64,000 bases of DNA, taken from the NCBI GenBank assembly GCA_051892875.1, contig JBJFGR010000026.1:7982-71981 (forward strand), given 5' to 3'. Positions 10,770 through 56,584 of the stretch are shown here, in pieces. The translations under genes and the position numbers were made by a program. Source of the stretch: Succinivibrionaceae bacterium (GTDB lineage Bacteria; Pseudomonadota; Gammaproteobacteria; Enterobacterales; Succinivibrionaceae). Every line of letters begins with the position of its first letter. Position 1 is the stretch's first letter. The notes under the pieces were generated by a model. The model saw only the letters and a list, made by a program, of their open reading frames with translations, was not told the DNA's origin and did not search any database.

Positions 10770-12809
10770 TTATTTCCAAAAACAAAATAATTTTTTTAAG
10801 AATGAGATGTTTTCTTCATTACCATTTTGTATTTCATCAAGTTTTTCACTTATTAAATCATATAAAGTTAATCCCTCATTATTTTTAATTATATCCCGTT
10901 TTATTTTTTCAGCTTTATCCTTACCTTCCATAATGAGTCTTGCATCTGTTAGTCCTGCTTTTATTCCTGTAAGAATTTCGATAGCGTCATCAACTGTTTT
11001 TACTGAAAAAATATGGAATTTTCCATCTTTTACAGCATCTATTACTTCATTATTTAAAACAAGAGATTGTATGTTGCTTTCTGGAATTAAAACGCCTTGT
11101 TTTCCGGTTAATCCCTGAATTTTACAAACTCTGTAAAATCCTTCTATTTTTTCATTTAGGCCGCCAACTGGCTGAACATTACCAAATTGGTCTAGTGAAC
11201 CTGTTAATGCATATTGTTGAAGTATAGGTATTCTAGCTAAGGCTGAGAGTGTGGCACATAAACCCGTTAATGATGCACTATCTCCATCTATTTCACTGTA
11301 TGATTGTTCAAAAACTAAATTTGTACTAACAGGTAAAGGTGTGCTTGCTCCAAAAATATTAGTTAAAAAACCATTGATAATCATCATTGCTTTGGTGTGT
11401 ATTTGACCTGCAAGATTTGCTTTATGTTCAATGTCGGCAATATCACCTTCACCCCCGGCATGTATAGTTGCAGTAATTCTAACAGGTTCTCCGTATTCGT
11501 AATAATCACCTATGGTTTCTATTACAGATAAACCATTAATTTGACCAACTGCAGAACCATCTGTTTGCAGAAGCATTTGCTTATTTTTATAAAAATCAGA
11601 AGATTCTTCTACAACGCTATTGATTCTAAATTCTCTATTGTTTAAAGTTTCTTCTAGTAAATTAAGTGAAACTTTTTCAACAGATTTTCGTTTTGCTAAT
11701 CCTGATGCTTCTCTCATGAGATTTAAAATATACTGTTCACTAAGAATAAATTCTTTTTGAGATTCAGAGCGTCGGCAACATACTCGCAATAATCTCTTTT
11801 TTGAATCATTATCAAAAGGCAGTAGATTCTTATTTTTAACAGTAGTATCGATAAATTGATAAAATTGTTGAGCATGGTTTTTTATGTTAAAGAAAGCATT
11901 TATATCTGTTTTAATGTAGAAAGAATTTGTACATTCTGGGTCATAAGAATACAATTCAGCAAATTCACTAACACTTCCAACTAAAATAACTTTTACATTA
12001 ATTGGGGTTGGTTCAGGAGAGAAAAAGGGAACAATGCTAATAGTGCTCTCGGTTGGATTTTCCCAATCTAGTAACCCCGAATCTAGAGTATTTTTTAATT
12101 TGAACCAAAGTATAGGATTATGTATTAATTCTTCTAAAGGAAGAATTAAAAATCCCCCATCTGCTTGTCTTAATAAACCTGCATCTAGTAGATGGTGATG
12201 AGAATATGTTGTTCCATTTTCCGTTAAATAATTAACTCCACCAAACAATTTTTTCCAGGTTAAATCTTTTCCGAAAATAACAGGTGGTTTATTTGGTTCA
12301 TGACATACTAAAAGATTCATTAAAACAGGATAGGTAAAATCTTTTCCTTGGGCAACGTGTATGGATAAATCAGAAAGATAATTTTCTAACTTTTTGTTGT
12401 TATCCTGTTTTTTAAGTATCCTTAAGAGAATGTTTTCAGCATTTAAGTTATGCTTTACATTATTTAATAAATCACATATAAGTTTGTTAAATTCTTCAGC
12501 GGTGCCACTTTTTATGTGCAACCATGTTGGAGATAATTCATTGTTTAGATTTTCTGCATAGCATATATCATAAAGTGTTGATGATAAAAATTCGCAATTT
12601 GATAAAATGTTTTTTATGCATTCTTCAACATCAAATCCACCTATAGAATTTAAGTACATGATAGGATTGTTCTTTTCTGTATATACTAATTCCTGAATGG
12701 CTGACTGTGCTCTTTTTTGAAAACTTGCAAAAGTTATATCATCAGATGTTGAATTAGTATTAACATCTGGAATATTTGGTAATAATTCTGTATAAGATAA
12801 TTCTTTCAT
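10770..12809 (-). CDS. ycbZ: Lon-like (S16) protease without canonical AAA+ motifs, YcbZ/LonH family
   Basis: The C-terminal Lon protease domain reads FEQSYSEIDGDSASLTGLCATLSALA...PVGGLNEKIEGF (Ser-Lys dyad). It lies next to fabA, as ycbZ does in E. coli. Confidence 0.8.
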   Translation of the reverse strand: MKELSYTELLPNIPDVNTNSTSDDITFASFQKRAQSAIQELVYTEKNNPIMYLNSIGGFDVEECIKNILSNCEFLSSTLYDICYAENLNNELSPTWLHIKSGTAEEFNKLICDLLNNVKHNLNAENILLRILKKQDNNKKLENYLSDLSIHVAQGKDFTYPVLMNLLVCHEPNKPPVIFGKDLTWKKLFGGVNYLTENGTTYSHHHLLDAGLLRQADGGFLILPLEELIHNPILWFKLKNTLDSGLLDWENPTESTISIVPFFSPEPTPINVKVILVGSVSEFAELYSYDPECTNSFYIKTDINAFFNIKNHAQQFYQFIDTTVKNKNLLPFDNDSKKRLLRVCCRRSESQKEFILSEQYILNLMREASGLAKRKSVEKVSLNLLEETLNNREFRINSVVEESSDFYKNKQMLLQTDGSAVGQINGLSVIETIGDYYEYGEPVRITATIHAGGEGDIADIEHKANLAGQIHTKAMMIINGFLTNIFGASTPLPVSTNLVFEQSYSEIDGDSASLTGLCATLSALARIPILQQYALTGSLDQFGNVQPVGGLNEKIEGFYRVCKIQGLTGKQGVLIPESNIQSLVLNNEVIDAVKDGKFHIFSVKTVDDAIEILTGIKAGLTDARLIMEGKDKAEKIKRDIIKNNEGLTLYDLISEKLDEIQNGNEENISFLKKLFCFWK

Positions 12810-13039: not shown

Positions 13040-14782
13040 ATGTATCTTGAGCGAATAGAAATAACAGGTTATAGGGGAATTTCTCGCTTATCTCTAAACT
13101 TGAATCAACAAACTGTATTAATTGGCGAGAATTCATGGGGAAAAAGTTCTTTACTTAGGTCTTTATGGTGTATTTTAGGGAATGGAAATGTGCCCTATGA
13201 ATTTGAAGCTGAAGATTTTAGAAAGGAGGATTTTGATTCAAGAGATAAAATATATGAATTGAGTTTTGTTTTAACTTTTAGAGAAATGATTATTGGTTCA
13301 GCTTTAAAAAATTCCAAACTGAGGTTGTTGGATCCTGTGTGGGTTCGTTGCAAAGATTCATATCATAGAGTTTTTTATTACATACATGCATCAATGAATC
13401 CTAATGGAACAATTTTTACAACTCATACATTTTTAGATGCAAATAGTAATATTATCCAAAGTAACTTAATGCAACAAGTACAGAATTTGCTTATGTTAAA
13501 TCCTGTATTTAGATTGCGTGATAGTAGAGCTCAGCGTAAAGAATTAGAAGCGAATAGTGAAAGTGAATCAATGGAAGAGTATATTACTCAAACAGAAAAT
13601 AGCGAATACAATAAGAAGAATTATACTAAAAAATCTTATTTAACAATATTAGAAAGAAGAGTTTTTAGGCTTTTTAAATTATATTTAAGAGATGACGGTG
13701 AAACCGTAACTAGAGAAGATATTAAAGATGGTATAAAAGCTGTAGGTGAGATATTAGAACATTATTATACAGTTTTGCCACCTTTGACCTCAAAAATAAA
13801 GGTAAGAGAGCGAAATTTTTATGAAAATAATCACCGCACTGTAAAGGATATGGTTTCCAGACCTGTTTCAAATAATTTAAGTGTTTCCCTGAGAAATTTA
13901 TTAAAAAATTGTGTTAAGAGTAGTACACGATTACTTTTAGCAATAATATCAGGAGCAATAATTGAAACAAAGTTATTACATAAAATTGATAGAAAGGCAC
14001 ATCCAATAGTTATTTTAGAAGATATAGAAAGTAGATTACATCCAACAACTTTATTAAATTTATGGCATATAATTGAATTATTGCCGATTCAAAAAATAGT
14101 AACTACAAATTCTGGTGATTTATTATCATCTGTAAATATTGCAGATATAAGGAGAATGAGTAGGGAGGTGAGCTCCATAAAGGCTATGGCTGTTGACGAA
14201 GATAAGTTTTCAAGTGATGAGTTAAGAAAAATTTCTTTTCATATAAGATTAAACAGATCTAATGCTTTATTTGCTAGATGTTGGCTTTTTGTAGAAGGAG
14301 AAACGGAGATTTGGATTATAAATGAGATAGCTGCACTAGTCGGGATTAATTTATACTCCGAGGGGATAAGGTTAATTGAATATGCACAATGTGGTGTTGC
14401 TCCTTTAGTAAAGCTAGCTAATCAAATAGGGATGGCGTGGCATTTATTAGCAGATGGTGATGATGCTGGTATTAAATATGCCAAGATAGCAAGTGCAAAC
14501 AATCAAAACGATAATGTTACATTATTACCCAGTGTTGATATTGAACATTTCTTTTATGAACATGGTTTTGAAAAAGTATATAAACAAAATTGCGGAGTAA
14601 ATAACACTAAAGGGTTAAATGAAAAACGAATAATTGAGTTAGCAGTCAAAAAACATACTAAGCCAGGAATGGCATTGTCTGTAGCTGATGAAGCTAGAAG
14701 ATTAGGAAGAAAGTCCGTACCTTTATTATTTCAAAAAATGTTTGCTAGGATTGTAGCAAATGCAACATCTAGGATAATGTAA
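13040..14782 (+). CDS. ybjD: OLD-family ATPase/Toprim nuclease, YbjD-like (DUF2813 N-terminus)
   Basis: The N-terminus MYLERIEITGYRGISRLSLNLNQQTVLIGENSWGKSSLL carries a Walker A motif. The Toprim region reads ARCWLFVEGETEIWIINE...LADGDDAG. It is colinear with E. coli YbjD as I remember that sequence. Confidence 0.75.
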   Translation: MYLERIEITGYRGISRLSLNLNQQTVLIGENSWGKSSLLRSLWCILGNGNVPYEFEAEDFRKEDFDSRDKIYELSFVLTFREMIIGSALKNSKLRLLDPVWVRCKDSYHRVFYYIHASMNPNGTIFTTHTFLDANSNIIQSNLMQQVQNLLMLNPVFRLRDSRAQRKELEANSESESMEEYITQTENSEYNKKNYTKKSYLTILERRVFRLFKLYLRDDGETVTREDIKDGIKAVGEILEHYYTVLPPLTSKIKVRERNFYENNHRTVKDMVSRPVSNNLSVSLRNLLKNCVKSSTRLLLAIISGAIIETKLLHKIDRKAHPIVILEDIESRLHPTTLLNLWHIIELLPIQKIVTTNSGDLLSSVNIADIRRMSREVSSIKAMAVDEDKFSSDELRKISFHIRLNRSNALFARCWLFVEGETEIWIINEIAALVGINLYSEGIRLIEYAQCGVAPLVKLANQIGMAWHLLADGDDAGIKYAKIASANNQNDNVTLLPSVDIEHFFYEHGFEKVYKQNCGVNNTKGLNEKRIIELAVKKHTKPGMALSVADEARRLGRKSVPLLFQKMFARIVANATSRIM

Positions 14783-14800
14783 GTTCAGTATTTATATATT

Positions 14801-14829
14801 TTGATAATTTTGACTAAATATGGTACAAT
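14801..14829 (+). promoter_or_regulatory. Predicted sigma70 promoter for the TIR-DHH cassette
   Basis: -35 TTGATA (14801-14806), 17-nt spacer, extended -10 TGgTACAAT (14821-14829). It would give a leader of about 150 nt before the ATG at 14987. Confidence 0.45.
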
Positions 14830-14986: not shown

Positions 14987-16636
14987 ATGTCTTCAAAAAG
15001 TAAGCTATTTGATGTTTTTATATCTCATTCGTCTAGTGATGCTAGAGTCGCTAGGACTATTTGCGACTATTTAGAAAAACATCGAAACACTTGTTGGATT
15101 GCTCCACGTAATATTTATATTGGCACAGATTACGCTGAGCAGATAATCAAAGGTCTTGAATCCTCGAAGGTTTTATTGATTATCTTGTCTGAGATGGCAA
15201 ACAAATCAGAGCAGGTTTTACGCGAAGTAGAACGTGCTACAAGTAAGAAATTACCGATAATTGTATTTGCTATTGAACCTATTAAACAATTATCAAAATC
15301 ATTAGAGTATTTTTTAACTCATCGTCAATGGATTATGGGATGTACTGAAAGTGGTAAGTTGTGCATAACAAAGGACGTTTTATTTCAGTTATCTTGTGTT
15401 GTTGAAAAGTTTATTCACCAAGTTGATAGTGGAGAGGAAGATATAGGTTTAGAGTATGAACCTATGTCTAATTTTAACTATCAAAAGAGATCTAATTTAT
15501 ATTTTAGAATTGCTGTAATTTCTTTAAGTGTTATAGCATTTTGGTTGGGTGGTTTATTTTCAGACGATATCGCAAAATATTATTTTCCTAATGATGATTA
15601 TAAAAAAAATGTAAAAAATGATGATACTTTAAGTAATCAAAAATCTATCGCATCAACAAAATTAAAACCTGGTGATATTATTTCTTATGGATCTTATCGT
15701 GATAAACCAATATTATGGTCCGTAATGAATGCTAAGGCGGGAATTGTTAAATTAGTAGCTTATAAGCCAATATCATACAAACCTTTTGATGTTGCTCATA
15801 GTGGTTATTATGATAAGGTTTCAAAAGATGGTACACCTATTGGTAATCATGATGATGAAATGATTGCTAATTACTTGTTGAATTATATAAGAGACGATGA
15901 TGGAATTTCTTATGTAAAAGCTAGAGGAAGTTCTGATTGGAGAAGTTCTACATTAAGATCTTGGTTAAACAGCAGAAATATTAATGTTAAATATCATCAT
16001 GGAATACCGTCAATAAATAATATTAATGATTCTATTTTAAAAAGTTATAACAGTGAAGATTCAGCAAAGATAGCAGAACGTGGTTTTTTAAGCAACTTTA
16101 CTGAAAATGAATTTTTACATATGGTTGTGCAAAAGGGTGATTTTTTATTCTTGTTTAATACCATAAATTGTCAACTTTATGATGAACCTATTATGGATAA
16201 AAAGGTTTCAGATGTTTCCAAGTTTAAGAAACATGCTCTGTCATTTTTAATGAAAAATTTCACAGGGTGTTATAATTTAAAATATAATGAGTATGTGACA
16301 ATACCTGATATATCAGATTTAGATGATATAGTTAAGGTTCCCGAAGTATTAGTATCTTTTAATTATAAGTTTGATGTTAATATAGAACAAAAGAATTTAC
16401 CTTATACTACATCTTTTTGGTTAAAGAATGCTTGTGGTTATACACCTTCATCTGTGTGTTCTATTATAGGAAGTAAGGATAATCCTAAAGTTATAAAAGT
16501 CACTATTAAAGAAGTAACAAATCTAGATGGTGTATTACCTATCATAAATATTAATATACGCCGACTTCGTTTAATGGGTAATGGTGATTTATTATCTCCT
16601 TATAAAGTAATATGGGATAGTCAAGTTGCTGAATAG
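14987..16636 (+). CDS. TIR-domain protein: N-terminal TIR (TIR_2 type), one predicted TM helix, C-terminal extracytoplasmic DUF6273-like domain
   Basis: The TIR signature is DVFISHSSSDARVARTICDYLEKHRNTCWIAPRNI...SEQVLREVERA...LPIIVFAIE. The hydrophobic helix is YFRIAVISLSVIAFWLGGLF. The C-terminal region contains GDIISYGSY..PILWSV...SSDWRSSTLRSWLNS...GFLSNFTENE, which is typical of DUF6273-type domains. Confidence 0.8.
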   Translation: MSSKSKLFDVFISHSSSDARVARTICDYLEKHRNTCWIAPRNIYIGTDYAEQIIKGLESSKVLLIILSEMANKSEQVLREVERATSKKLPIIVFAIEPIKQLSKSLEYFLTHRQWIMGCTESGKLCITKDVLFQLSCVVEKFIHQVDSGEEDIGLEYEPMSNFNYQKRSNLYFRIAVISLSVIAFWLGGLFSDDIAKYYFPNDDYKKNVKNDDTLSNQKSIASTKLKPGDIISYGSYRDKPILWSVMNAKAGIVKLVAYKPISYKPFDVAHSGYYDKVSKDGTPIGNHDDEMIANYLLNYIRDDDGISYVKARGSSDWRSSTLRSWLNSRNINVKYHHGIPSINNINDSILKSYNSEDSAKIAERGFLSNFTENEFLHMVVQKGDFLFLFNTINCQLYDEPIMDKKVSDVSKFKKHALSFLMKNFTGCYNLKYNEYVTIPDISDLDDIVKVPEVLVSFNYKFDVNIEQKNLPYTTSFWLKNACGYTPSSVCSIIGSKDNPKVIKVTIKEVTNLDGVLPIININIRRLRLMGNGDLLSPYKVIWDSQVAE

Positions 16637-16679: not shown

Positions 16680-18212
16680 ATGATAGATTTAAATATTATA
16701 GCTTCTGAGAATGATGAAATTACTATTCAGTGTCACGATAATCCTGATGCAGATGCTATTGGTTCAGGTTTTGCTCTATATAGATTTTTTGTAAAAAAAG
16801 GAATAAAGACAAGCTTAATTTACTCTGGAAAAAATAAGATAGGCAAAGTTAATCTAAAAAAAATGGTTGAGCTATTGCATATCCCTATAGAGTTTGTAAA
16901 GCCAAATATTGATGTAGACGGATTATTGATTACAGTTGATTGTCAATACGGATGTTCAAATGTAACCAATATCAATTGTAAAAAGTGTTTAGTTATTGAT
17001 CATCACATACCAGATCCTTATAGAAAACCTAATAATGGTGAATGTATAAGAAGTCTTTATGGCAGTTGTTCAACTGTTATTTATCATTTGTTAGTACGTA
17101 GTAATTACCTTATAAAAGATGATTTAGAAGCATCTACTGGATTGTATTATGGGTTGTATATGGATACTGGTGAGTTTTCTGAAATAACCAATATGGCTGA
17201 TAAGGATGCTAGAGATGAATTGCATTTTAATTTGCAAATAATAACAATTCTTCAAAATTCTAATTTAACATTTTCAGATTTTTCAATTGCAGGTCAGGCT
17301 TTATCTAATTATCATTATTTTCCAGATAGAAGAATTGCTACAATTCAGACACAACCTTGTGACGTAAATATTTTAGGATTTATTTCTGATTTATTATTGA
17401 GAGTGGATGGGGTAGATGTCGGAATTGTATACACTGATTTGGGAGATATCACTAAACTTTCAATAAGAAGTTGTTCTAATGAGATAAAAGCTAACGAGTT
17501 AGCACAATATATAACTTTAAATATTGGAGGAGGCGGTGGCCATATTCGCAAAAGTGGTGGGTATATTAGTAATTTGATGTATAAAGAGCAGTTTGCTAGT
17601 ATGTGCAAATCAAAGGATGAATATATTTATAAAAAATTTTGTAGTTTTTATGATAGTTTTGATTATGTTTATACAGATAAATATAAGGTTGATGTATCAG
17701 AATTTAAATTATTCACTAAATGCGAATTGGTGTTAGGTTGGATTCCAAGTACTACTATTGCACCATTAGGAACGCAGATAATTTTAAGAACTCAAGAAGG
17801 GGATGTTTCAGAGAGAGTGTCTGATAATTTGATAATAATGGTAGGTATATTAGGAGAAGTTTATCCCATTAAAAGAACATCGTTTGAAAAAAAATACAAA
17901 GTTGTAGATGAACCTTTTGACATTGATTTTGAATATTCTCCAAGAATTAGAGTTTTAGATTACGATGATGTTGTATTTCTAGAAGGTTTAATAAAACCTT
18001 GTAAAGTACTTCCAGCTAATAATGTTTATGCTAAAAAATTATCTAAAGAAACAAAAATATTTTCAGAATGGAATTATGAAAACTATATGACAGGTAGAAT
18101 TGGTGATTATATTGTCTGTTATCAAAAAGAAAATGGAGAACCAAATTCTTCTGATTTATATATTGTTAATGGAAATATTTTTAATAGATTATATACAAAA
18201 GTAAGACCATAA
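16680..18212 (+). CDS. DHH/DHHA1-family phosphoesterase (NrnA-like core) with a C-terminal extension of about 190 aa of unknown function
   Basis: DHH motifs are HDNPDADAIGS, TVDCQ and VIDHH. The DHHA1 motif is IGGGGGHIRKSGG. An AGGAAGG RBS lies 43 nt after the TIR stop. The C-terminal about 190 aa are not assignable. Confidence 0.8.
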   Translation: MIDLNIIASENDEITIQCHDNPDADAIGSGFALYRFFVKKGIKTSLIYSGKNKIGKVNLKKMVELLHIPIEFVKPNIDVDGLLITVDCQYGCSNVTNINCKKCLVIDHHIPDPYRKPNNGECIRSLYGSCSTVIYHLLVRSNYLIKDDLEASTGLYYGLYMDTGEFSEITNMADKDARDELHFNLQIITILQNSNLTFSDFSIAGQALSNYHYFPDRRIATIQTQPCDVNILGFISDLLLRVDGVDVGIVYTDLGDITKLSIRSCSNEIKANELAQYITLNIGGGGGHIRKSGGYISNLMYKEQFASMCKSKDEYIYKKFCSFYDSFDYVYTDKYKVDVSEFKLFTKCELVLGWIPSTTIAPLGTQIILRTQEGDVSERVSDNLIIMVGILGEVYPIKRTSFEKKYKVVDEPFDIDFEYSPRIRVLDYDDVVFLEGLIKPCKVLPANNVYAKKLSKETKIFSEWNYENYMTGRIGDYIVCYQKENGEPNSSDLYIVNGNIFNRLYTKVRP

Positions 18213-18225
18213 TATATGGTCTTAC
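18201..18225. terminator. Shared hairpin between convergent DHH gene and suhB
   Basis: 10-bp stem GTAAGACCAT / ATGGTCTTAC with a 5-nt loop, overlapping the DHH stop codon. A U-run (TTTTG) follows it on the minus strand, so it fits best as the suhB terminator. Confidence 0.5.
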
Positions 18226-56088: not shown

Positions 56089-56239
56089 ATGAAATTGAAG
56101 AAAATATGTAACATTTTTAATATGAAACATAAGGTGTTTAATAATTTTTGTGGAAACAAATTAACTATATGAGCTAGTCAACAGACTTTAGTTTGTAGGT
56201 GATATATTGAATAATGTTAAAATTAAAAGGATGTATTTA

Positions 56240-56572
56240 ATGAGTAATGATAATTTAGTAGCAAGTCTTCATGAAGAACTTGAAATGAAAAGTACTGATA
56301 GTATAGATGCAATGCAACATTTTGAATATCAGACAGAAGGTACATGTGCACGCATTATAACTTTTGAAGTAGAAGATAACAAAATACATAATGTACATTT
56401 CATAGGTGGGTGTCCTGGTAATTTAAAAATGATTTCCAAACTAATCGAAGGTATGAATGTGAATGATGTTTATAAAAAGTGTTTAGGAAACACATGTGGA
56501 AACAAAGGAACTTCATGTGCAGATCAGCTAGCTTTAGCTTGTAAGAAATATATGGAACAATTTAAAAAATAA
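56240..56572 (+). CDS. TSCPD-domain protein of the TIGR03905 type
   Basis: EYQTEGTCARIITFEVEDNKIHNVHFIGGCPGNLKMISKLIEGMNVNDV...CGNKGTSCADQLA. The start is uncertain: track TTG at 56207, ATG at 56240 with an AGGA RBS, or ATG at 56312 just before the domain. Confidence 0.65.
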   Translation: MSNDNLVASLHEELEMKSTDSIDAMQHFEYQTEGTCARIITFEVEDNKIHNVHFIGGCPGNLKMISKLIEGMNVNDVYKKCLGNTCGNKGTSCADQLALACKKYMEQFKK

Positions 56573-56584
56573 AGGATATATTTA

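Follow-up and report, generated by a model that had tools for sequence, protein, structure and literature searches.

The forward-strand gene at positions 14987–16636 of a 64,000-nucleotide stretch of Succinivibrionaceae bacterium DNA (assembly GCA_051892875.1, contig JBJFGR010000026.1; this whole stretch is hereafter called the window) encodes a 549-residue protein which, based on our analyses, belongs to the TIR_2 family and, more remotely, to the DUF6273 fold family. On balance, we lean toward the reading that this protein is a single-pass inner-membrane TIR receptor whose N-terminus is in the cytoplasm and whose DUF6273-type domain is in the periplasm, that its gene is co-transcribed with a gene for a DHH phosphoesterase of the GdpP/NrnA type, and that the two constitute a module conserved in gut Clostridia and Succinivibrionaceae. 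The likely function of such a module would be nucleotide signaling by a surface-sensing TIR protein. A preliminary description of the gene, made from the letters of the window alone, had proposed the receptor-like layout, and its individual claims are taken up below alongside the results that bear on them.

Domain organization of the TIR protein

The gene is an uninterrupted open reading frame (ORF) of 549 codons preceded by a GAGG ribosome-binding site, and the ORF call, Pfam searches and an AlphaFold2 model together give the order of its parts as an N-terminal TIR_2 domain, one hydrophobic helix and a C-terminal domain of ~320 residues. A large-database search provided ~45 full-length relatives, most of which bear precomputed TIR_2 and DUF6273 annotations, and 45 of them were aligned (alignment A1). 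The AlphaFold2 model, which was built on this 45-sequence alignment and has a mean predicted local distance difference test score (pLDDT) of 85.6, comprises the TIR domain (residues 1–148), a disordered segment (153–170), a helix (171–199), a second disordered segment (200–222) and a confidently modelled domain (223–545).

The TIR domain (residues 8–148; positions 15008–15430, + strand) was readily identified. The preliminary description had called the first ~150 residues a TIR_2-type domain, and the hidden Markov model search bore this out, with TIR_2 (PF13676) matching residues 10–116 at an E-value of 1.8e-16 and a score of 61.1 bits, above the curated Pfam cut-off of 28. There were weaker matches to the TIR and ThsB_TIR models as well, the latter falling below its cut-off (21.0 vs 21.2). 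In a Foldseek search of the PDB dozens of TIR domains matched this part of the model, including those of SARM1, TLR1, TLR6, AbTir and BtpA at E-values of about 1e-5 to 1e-6, and MAL was also matched. The fold is the flavodoxin-like TIR fold, with target TM-scores of 0.66–0.84 for the matches to SARM1, TLR1, TLR6, TRR-2 and AbTir (isolated TIR-domain chains; the pLDDT of the model is >90 there).

The TIR domain looks enzymatic, and of the NADase type, because S74 and E80 (S74-x5-E80) are invariant in all 45 homologues and because E80 aligns with a motif glutamate of another TIR protein. The GAA codon for E80, which was checked, is at positions 15224–15226 (+ strand) and the residue lies within the segment SEQVLREVERA. 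In a pairwise alignment with Cat1, a solved CRISPR-associated TIR protein, SEQVLREV falls on SDWCWDEL, which places E80 on the glutamate of the S-x-W-C-x-x-E-L motif. In SARM1, plant TIR proteins and AbTir this is the position of the catalytic glutamate, and E80 is inside the SxxSxxS...VLREVERA segment where the preliminary description had put that residue. No second TIR gene was found in the source genome.

Membrane topology

The TIR domain is followed by a single predicted transmembrane helix, residues 172–191 (YFRIAVISLSVIAFWLGGLF; positions 15500–15559, + strand), which corresponds to the only Kyte–Doolittle peak of the window protein (mean 1.97, residues 173–191) and to the modelled helix noted above. 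A single hydrophobic helix between the TIR domain and the ectodomain is present in 45 of the 45 homologues, with peak hydropathies of 1.6–3.6. A signal peptide was not apparent, as the N-terminus is not hydrophobic on the Kyte–Doolittle scale and the first TIR strand begins at residue 8. The distribution of charge around the helix was informative across the family: the 15-residue flanks contain on average 4.4 Lys/Arg residues on the N side versus 1.7 on the C side (45 homologues), and the N-side flank is the richer in 40 homologues, equal in five and the poorer in none. This bias fits the positive-inside rule and a cytoplasmic N-terminus.

Two further features of the family are consistent with an extracytoplasmic C-terminal domain. 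The first is a pair of cysteine pairs. C395 and C428 (codon span 16169–16270, + strand; codons checked) occur together in the six closest sequences, with neither present in any other, and C483 and C491 (codon span 16433–16459, + strand), which lie across a predicted beta-hairpin (model strands 476–484 and 489–495), are both present in 11 of 11 sequences of the gammaproteobacterial (gamma) clade and both missing from all 34 Bacillota sequences. The gamma clade consists of ten sequences from Succinivibrionaceae genomes or low-GC metagenome contigs and P0006, a metagenome protein that groups with them. Ectodomain cysteines that come and go as pairs, confined to the clade with an oxidizing periplasm, are the pattern that disulfide bonds would give, and this line of evidence does not depend on hydropathy. 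Disulfides occur in the periplasmic domains of sensors of the ToxR, CadC and RseA type, and the two predicted here probably stabilize the periplasmic domain. The second feature is the segment after the helix, which in the Bacillota homologues is often a long stalk rich in Ser, Thr and Asn and in the gamma clade is a short linker, as expected of cell-wall-spanning versus periplasmic proteins.

Taken together, the single helix, the flank charges and the cysteine pairs confined to the Gram-negative clade make an arrangement with the TIR domain inside, one helix and the sensor domain outside well supported as a computational topology. In this respect the preliminary description, which had proposed no N-terminal signal peptide, one strongly hydrophobic helix at about residues 171–192, a cytoplasmic TIR domain and a sensor outside, agrees with our predictions.

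The DUF6273-like C-terminal domain

The predicted periplasmic domain (residues 223–545; positions 15653–16621, + strand) was modelled mostly with a pLDDT of >90 and, based on this model and on its homologues, is a DUF6273 relative with a C-type-lectin-like fold. The preliminary description had named it DUF6273-like, an assignment that holds through the homologues and the fold and not through the window protein's own profile score, which is below the Pfam cut-off for DUF6273 (PF19789; 16.4 vs 23.5 bits, E-value of 0.0088, residues 299–374). PF19789 was matched by 41 of the 45 homologues when these were scanned singly, at E-values of 0.001 or better (best 7.6e-22). The best PDB match of the modelled domain was 9qa6, a cryo-electron microscopy structure of the Thomasclavelia ramosa immunoglobulin A (IgA) peptidase (Foldseek E-value of 8.2e-13 over 339 columns), the N-terminal domain of which is annotated as DUF6273 (PMC12402451). 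When the domain was compared with predicted viral structures, the best matches included gut-phage proteins annotated as DUF6273. DUF6273 has been described as a C-type-lectin-like domain of phage receptor-binding proteins and is often diversified by diversity-generating retroelements (DGRs) (PMC10743442, PMC11792537). The ectodomain evolves faster than the TIR domain, with 39–40% identity to the two nearest relatives compared with 55–71% for the TIR domain, and in the gamma clade it has an insertion of ~50 residues in addition to its two cysteine pairs.

In view of the association of this fold with DGRs, we considered the gene as a DGR target and rejected this for the TIR locus, as neither the window nor any of 88 related loci contained a template/variable repeat; specifically, the final 400 nt of the gene did not recur in either. 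No reverse transcriptase signal turned up near the TIR gene, although no search aimed at reverse transcriptase was made. The sole direct repeat of at least 60 nt in the window consists of two 79-nt copies (56149–56227 and 56495–56573; 73% identical, 346 nt apart) and is situated away from the TIR gene.

The DHH/DHHA1 protein

The gene for the proposed partner (positions 16680–18212, + strand) begins 43 nt downstream of the TIR gene and encodes a 510-residue DHH/DHHA1 phosphoesterase with a C-terminal beta-rich extension of 190 residues. Pfam matches to DHH and DHHA1 had E-values of 2.3e-13 and 1.2e-6, respectively, and the motifs DxD (residues 23–25), D87, DHH (107–109), D162 and GGGH (285–288) are invariant in 29 of 29 DHH sequences from both phyla. 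The first 330–350 residues of the model (pLDDT of 89.9) match the catalytic domain of GdpP, Thermotoga maritima TM1595, Rv2837c, NrnA/Pde2 and DhhP at E-values of about 1e-18. At the level of sequence the matches are marginal, with phmmer E-values against the PDB of about 1e-4 and an NCBIfam NrnA score of 33 bits versus a cut-off of 350, so that the protein falls outside the equivalog models. The DHH protein is without a hydrophobic segment and would therefore be cytoplasmic, on the same side of the membrane as the TIR domain.

The C-terminal extension (residues 318–510; positions 17631–18209) is modelled as two similar beta-rich subdomains and is conserved to its last residues in both phyla, conservation among the 29 sequences running on to residue 505. 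No Pfam family covers it, PDB sequences gave no match at E-values up to 10 even when searched with a profile of 29 sequences, and a fold search with the whole DHH model returned DHH-domain matches only. This extension could be a ligand-binding domain.

We also considered the DHH gene as phage-borne or anti-defense cargo and rejected this, as 2.9 million viral contigs (IMG/VR) contained no relative of the long DHH protein; these contigs likewise contained no full-length TIR-DUF6273 protein, only isolated TIR domains.

A paralogous stand-alone long DHH gene was observed at a conserved housekeeping locus with asnS, an argA-like gene and a gene for a pyridine-nucleotide-disulfide oxidoreductase in Succinivibrionaceae genomes that have no TIR gene (L107–L113, from G006, G020, G013, G026, G035 and G022). 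The genome of the window has only the TIR-linked copy.

Linkage of the TIR and DHH genes

A pattern scan of one genome per species identified 433 relatives of the TIR protein, and the locus counts given here refer to the best 80 of these 433. A DHH protein of about 500 residues is encoded within 3.5 kb of the TIR gene at 32 of the 80 loci, mostly immediately downstream and in a few cases divergently upstream. The gene pair, often with overlapping stop and start codons, is present in four Succinivibrionaceae-type loci (L001/L014, L003, L016 and L017) and also in the Bacillota loci L021 and L025. Where TIR-positive Bacillota genomes had no adjacent DHH gene, 10 of 12 carried one elsewhere, compared with a base rate of 14 in 100 random Lachnospiraceae genomes (binomial P of 1.5e-7), and in the Succinivibrionaceae the DHH gene was present in 7/7 TIR-positive genomes versus 14/37 overall (hypergeometric P of 3e-4); both P values ignore shared ancestry. 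Most of the genomes that were examined are metagenome bins and absences are thus soft. Based on these data, the DHH gene is consistently linked to the TIR receptor gene, as a conserved partner, in gut bacteria of two phyla.

The same DHH protein was also found beside a second class of TIR protein. In 7 of 14 DHH-positive Lachnospiraceae without a DUF6273 receptor, the DHH gene is near a TIR_2 ORF of 920–1082 residues, directly adjacent in six and within about 2 kb in one. Three such ORFs were examined (L117:2336–5329, L118:2430–5537 and L119:1139–4129), all directly beside the DHH gene, and each encodes about 1000 residues with a TIR_2 domain bearing the canonical W-C/V-x-x-E-I-E motif, a single helix, a coiled coil and a double beta-propeller. 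Since the DHH gene adjoins genes for TIR-membrane proteins of two ectodomain classes, its constant partner is the membrane-anchored cytoplasmic TIR part, irrespective of the ectodomain.

A longer variant of the Succinivibrionaceae TIR receptor (~700 residues) was observed in L017:8405–10537 (G019) and in P0006. It has ~130 extra N-terminal residues rich in Cys-x-x-Cys, with zinc-ribbon-like repeats of the Pfam family Toprim_Crpt in two members, and is likewise followed by a DHH gene.

Distribution and inheritance

The preliminary description had considered the combination of TIR_2 and DUF6273 typical of gut Firmicutes and Bacteroidota and had suggested horizontal acquisition. The first part stood for Firmicutes, as 78 of the best 80 loci are from Lachnospiraceae (Acetatifactor, Lachnospira, Butyrivibrio and Agathobacter), Oscillospiraceae and other Clostridia or Bacillota; there were no Bacteroidota among these 80 loci, the remaining two being from Pseudomonadota (one titled Ruminobacter sp.). 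Within the order of the source organism, full-length TIR homologues were found in 7/37 Succinivibrionaceae genomes and in 0/24 genomes from other families.

Several lines of evidence bear on the second part. In a maximum-likelihood tree, the 11 Succinivibrionaceae-type TIR sequences are on one side of a branch with a Shimodaira–Hasegawa-like approximate likelihood ratio test (SH-aLRT) support of 99 and have long internal branches, and the tree of the DHH proteins gives the same Succinivibrionaceae split. A Ruminobacter genome of the same family has the ybjD-like gene, the TIR gene, the DHH gene, one extra gene and suhB in the order of the window, with identities of 54% for the YbjD-like protein, 40% for the TIR protein, 50% for the DHH protein, 78% for SuhB and 90% for the product of the following 549-residue gene. 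The GC content across the TIR gene is 0.28–0.31, equal to that of its surroundings. Because the clade is confined to the family, the order of genes is shared with Ruminobacter and the GC content is ordinary, a recent horizontal acquisition is not supported, and the closest homologues appear to have been inherited within the Succinivibrionaceae. This speaks in part against the suggestion in the preliminary description, of which an old transfer between gut Clostridia and Succinivibrionaceae survives as plausible.

Proposed mechanism and alternative explanations

The anatomy of the pair is suggestive of a sensor, a transmitter and an enzyme that processes nucleotides. In the scheme that we envisage, we infer membrane insertion, NADase activity, a ligand, a substrate of the DHH enzyme and an output, whether in phage defense or elsewhere. 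A ligand would bind the periplasmic lectin-like domain and cause the receptor to cluster; clustering would bring the TIR domains together so that active sites form; the clustered TIR domains would then cleave or cyclize NAD+ into a nucleotide product; and the DHH enzyme would hydrolyze or convert that product, or would itself be regulated by it. Characterized TIR NADases need self-association for activity. The sensed cue may be phage, competitors or molecules of the host or gut. An asymmetry in which the TIR gene is never without the DHH gene and the DHH gene is often without the TIR gene, as among the Succinivibrionaceae genomes, would fit an enzyme that limits or processes what may be a harmful product, or a shared downstream component that is fed by several receptors.

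A number of observations weigh against this reading. Nothing indicates the chemical product of the TIR domain. Within the family, the helix of the window protein is among the weaker ones (1.97), and the 15-residue flanks of this protein are equal, with 2 and 2 Lys/Arg, so that the topology call rests mainly on the family. There is no adjacent DHH gene at 48 of the best 80 loci. The long DHH gene was found without a detectable TIR gene in several Succinivibrionaceae, beside asnS and other housekeeping genes, and 4 of 14 DHH-positive Lachnospiraceae were without any TIR_2 match; these cases imply that the DHH protein has a role independent of TIR and that common lineage could explain some of the linkage. 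Taken as a whole, no PADLOC system was matched by either protein, and the DHH protein has no PADLOC match of any kind. Lastly, the TIR genes are flanked by ordinary metabolic genes and not by a defense island. We have not called the gene pair a defense system because of this setting and because no phage-borne copy was found.

A more far-reaching proposal is that the TIR-membrane receptors, with either DUF6273 or double-propeller ectodomains, and the three-domain DHH protein make up an undescribed two-component signaling or immune system of gut bacteria in which recognition of an extracytoplasmic ligand leads the TIR enzyme to make a nucleotide messenger that is then read or terminated by the DHH protein. 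Such a system would represent a working bacterial equivalent of Toll-like surface sensing. We put this forward only tentatively.

It is rather unlikely, in our estimation, that the DHH protein is instead a downstream effector like ThsA, with its C-terminal domain binding the TIR nucleotide and switching on the phosphoesterase, which would degrade an essential nucleotide or short nucleic acids, and with several receptor paralogues feeding one effector. In its favor, some genomes have two or three TIR-DUF6273 paralogues and one long DHH gene, an arrangement resembling that of multiple ThsB proteins with one ThsA, and the C-terminal extension, which is conserved in both phyla and is matched by neither Pfam nor PDB sequences, could therefore serve as a sensor domain. 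However, no known signal-binding domain (SLOG, Macro, SAVED or CARF) was detected, and the occurrence of the DHH gene without TIR at conserved housekeeping loci in several genomes would be unusual for a toxic effector.

Another explanation is that the TIR protein is a stand-alone, membrane-tethered abortive-infection effector that depletes NAD+ when its periplasmic domain senses phage, and that the DHH protein is a housekeeping nanoRNase that is a neighbor by chance. Many bacterial TIR effectors do deplete NAD+, including those of SPARTA, CBASS and Pycsar, and this explanation would be in keeping with the invariance of the catalytic-position glutamate, with the isolated occurrence of the DHH family in housekeeping contexts and with the loci, more than half of the best 80, that have no adjacent DHH gene. 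Chance, however, does not readily account for an adjacency of overlapping or very close genes that has been kept across two phyla at 25–30% identity of the TIR proteins, for a genome co-occurrence of the two genes far above the base rate, or for the same DHH gene adjoining a second class of TIR-membrane protein with an unrelated ectodomain. We therefore consider this explanation doubtful.

We judge it quite improbable that the TIR domain serves, as in the animal Toll-like receptors (TLRs), as a scaffold without enzyme activity, recruiting partners through contacts between TIR domains or between the TIR domain and the DHH protein, or that the protein is not inserted in the membrane. In the Foldseek results, TLR1, TLR6 and MAL are no more distant from the TIR domain than the enzymatic TIR domains are, and the helix of the window protein is only moderately hydrophobic; but a scaffold is difficult to reconcile with an enzyme-type glutamate and a preceding serine that are both invariant in the family, and with a source genome in which no second TIR gene was found, while insertion is favored by the helix, by the charge bias and by the cysteine pairs specific to one clade. 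That the pair is recently acquired mobile or phage-borne defense cargo is highly improbable, since the presence of the bulk of the family in gut Clostridia, its patchiness in the Succinivibrionaceae (7/37 genomes) and the OLD-family nuclease gene upstream are outweighed by the single deep Succinivibrionaceae clade in both trees, the ybjD/TIR/DHH/suhB order shared with a Ruminobacter whose TIR protein is only 40% identical, a GC content equal to the surroundings, viral contigs devoid of a full-length copy of either gene and the lack of a DGR repeat.

Relationship to known systems

The membrane receptor with a DHH partner that we favor shares features with several described systems. As in Thoeris, a bacterial TIR protein with a glutamate at the catalytic position is encoded beside a second enzyme, a single partner gene can be accompanied by several TIR paralogues in one genome, and there are weak sequence matches to ThsB models. 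Unlike ThsB, which is soluble, the window TIR protein is predicted to span the membrane and to have an extracytoplasmic sensor; its partner is a DHH/DHHA1 phosphoesterase and not an effector of the ThsA type, be it SIR2-SLOG, Macro-TM or any other of those described; and the locus, in contrast to Thoeris, is not in a defense island and has no known anti-phage activity. A survey describes 29 Thoeris types (I–XI named), and DHH does not appear in its text (bioRxiv 10.64898/2025.12.03.692087). Membership of classical Thoeris was rejected based on this absence and on the lack of a ThsA-type partner.

The preliminary description had also likened the layout to that of TLRs. This holds for the membrane logic, as the predicted protein is, like the animal Toll-like and interleukin-1 receptors, single-pass with a ligand-binding domain outside and the TIR domain inside, and the TIR domains of TLR1 and TLR6 are among the best structural matches. 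The likeness does not extend to the order of the chain, which is inverted, the TIR domain being N-terminal and the protein, like ToxR or RseA, of type II orientation, or to the TIR domain itself, which keeps an enzyme-type glutamate whereas the TIR domains of TLRs are scaffolds. Moreover, the ectodomain is DUF6273/lectin-like and is not composed of leucine-rich repeats (LRRs) or immunoglobulin domains. The features that define the TLR family (N-terminal LRRs, a helix and a C-terminal scaffold TIR domain) are thus not those of the window protein, for which the only LRR-related match was LRR_adjacent at an E-value of 0.059, a chance level. Nothing indicated that the architecture as a whole shares its descent with the animal receptors. 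An analogy in terms of layout is provided by the bitopic sensors ToxR, CadC and RseA, in which an output domain at the N-terminus is likewise cytoplasmic and is followed by one membrane helix and a sensor domain in the periplasm, but in which the output is DNA binding or an anti-sigma function and not a TIR enzyme.

With respect to its ectodomain, the window protein is of the same fold family as the DUF6273/C-type-lectin-fold domains of phage tentaclins, DGR targets and the T. ramosa IgA peptidase, which are similarly extracytoplasmic and from a gut habitat (PMC10743442, PMC11792537, PMC12402451); it differs in that the domain is joined to a helix in the membrane and to a TIR domain in the cytoplasm and, in the gamma clade, has the insertion and cysteine pairs described above. 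The concept of a lectin-fold sensor coupled to a TIR effector has a precedent in the CLec-domain "antigen sensors" of conflict systems in multicellular bacteria, in which a sensor that is sometimes periplasmic is coupled to effectors including TIR (PF13676) (PMC10907252, PMC7159879). Those sensors are DGR-diversified and belong to ternary systems with STAND NTPases or MoxR/vWA proteins, whereas the window protein has no NTPase and no DGR, has a DHH partner and is from unicellular gut anaerobes.

The DHH protein has the two-domain fold and all the catalytic motifs of the stand-alone DHH/DHHA1 enzymes (GdpP, TM1595, Rv2837c/CnpB, NrnA/Pde2 and DhhP). Enzymes of this type hydrolyze pApA, c-di-AMP, pAp and nanoRNA. 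The window protein is distinguished from them by its extra conserved 190-residue domain, by the marginal sequence similarity and by its genetic link to TIR receptors.

To our knowledge, the bacterial TIR proteins characterized so far are soluble enzymes, and they detect infection from within the cell. No TIR–DHH pairing and no characterized bacterial transmembrane TIR receptor were found in the literature searched, many subscription journals being outside its reach. If our reading is true, a TIR enzyme wired through the membrane to a binding domain outside and accompanied in two phyla by a dedicated phosphoesterase would mean that bacteria also put TIR chemistry to use in reporting what happens at their surface. 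It would also provide a testable model of TIR-based surface receptors that work without the adaptor proteins of animals, and it suggests that there may be a new nucleotide signal together with a hydrolase for it. The two genes form a small chromosomal pair that is easily expressed.

Flanking signals and neighboring genes

The 204-nt gap between the preceding gene and the TIR gene contains a promoter-like site (positions 14801–14829, + strand) with TTGATA, a 17-nt spacer, TACAAT and an upstream TG, which matched the consensus at 10 of 12 positions and is a consensus match only. A pattern scan identified no terminator-like site between the TIR and DHH genes. At the other end of the pair, a two-way terminator-like hairpin with a perfect 11-bp stem, recognized by pattern match only and on both strands, is present at positions 18201–18225 between the convergent DHH and suhB genes, where it overlaps the DHH stop codon.

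Upstream, the gene at positions 13040–14782 (+ strand) encodes a YbjD-like OLD-family ATPase–Toprim protein (DUF2813 E-value of 2e-98; PADLOC GajA-like E-value of 1.3e-91) that is probably outside the module. Divergent to it is an ORF on the – strand (positions 10770–12809) without a PADLOC match. The YbjD-like gene is beside the TIR gene only in the window and at the syntenic Ruminobacter locus, being absent at the other gamma loci and at all Bacillota loci, and for this reason the OLD nuclease was rejected as a third component. Gabija was also rejected, as the GajA-like gene is not accompanied by a GajB UvrD-like helicase, the next genes being those for the TIR and DHH proteins; it is a single gene of the YbjD-like (DUF2813) kind. 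PADLOC-type scans could mislabel this YbjD-like gene as Gabija.

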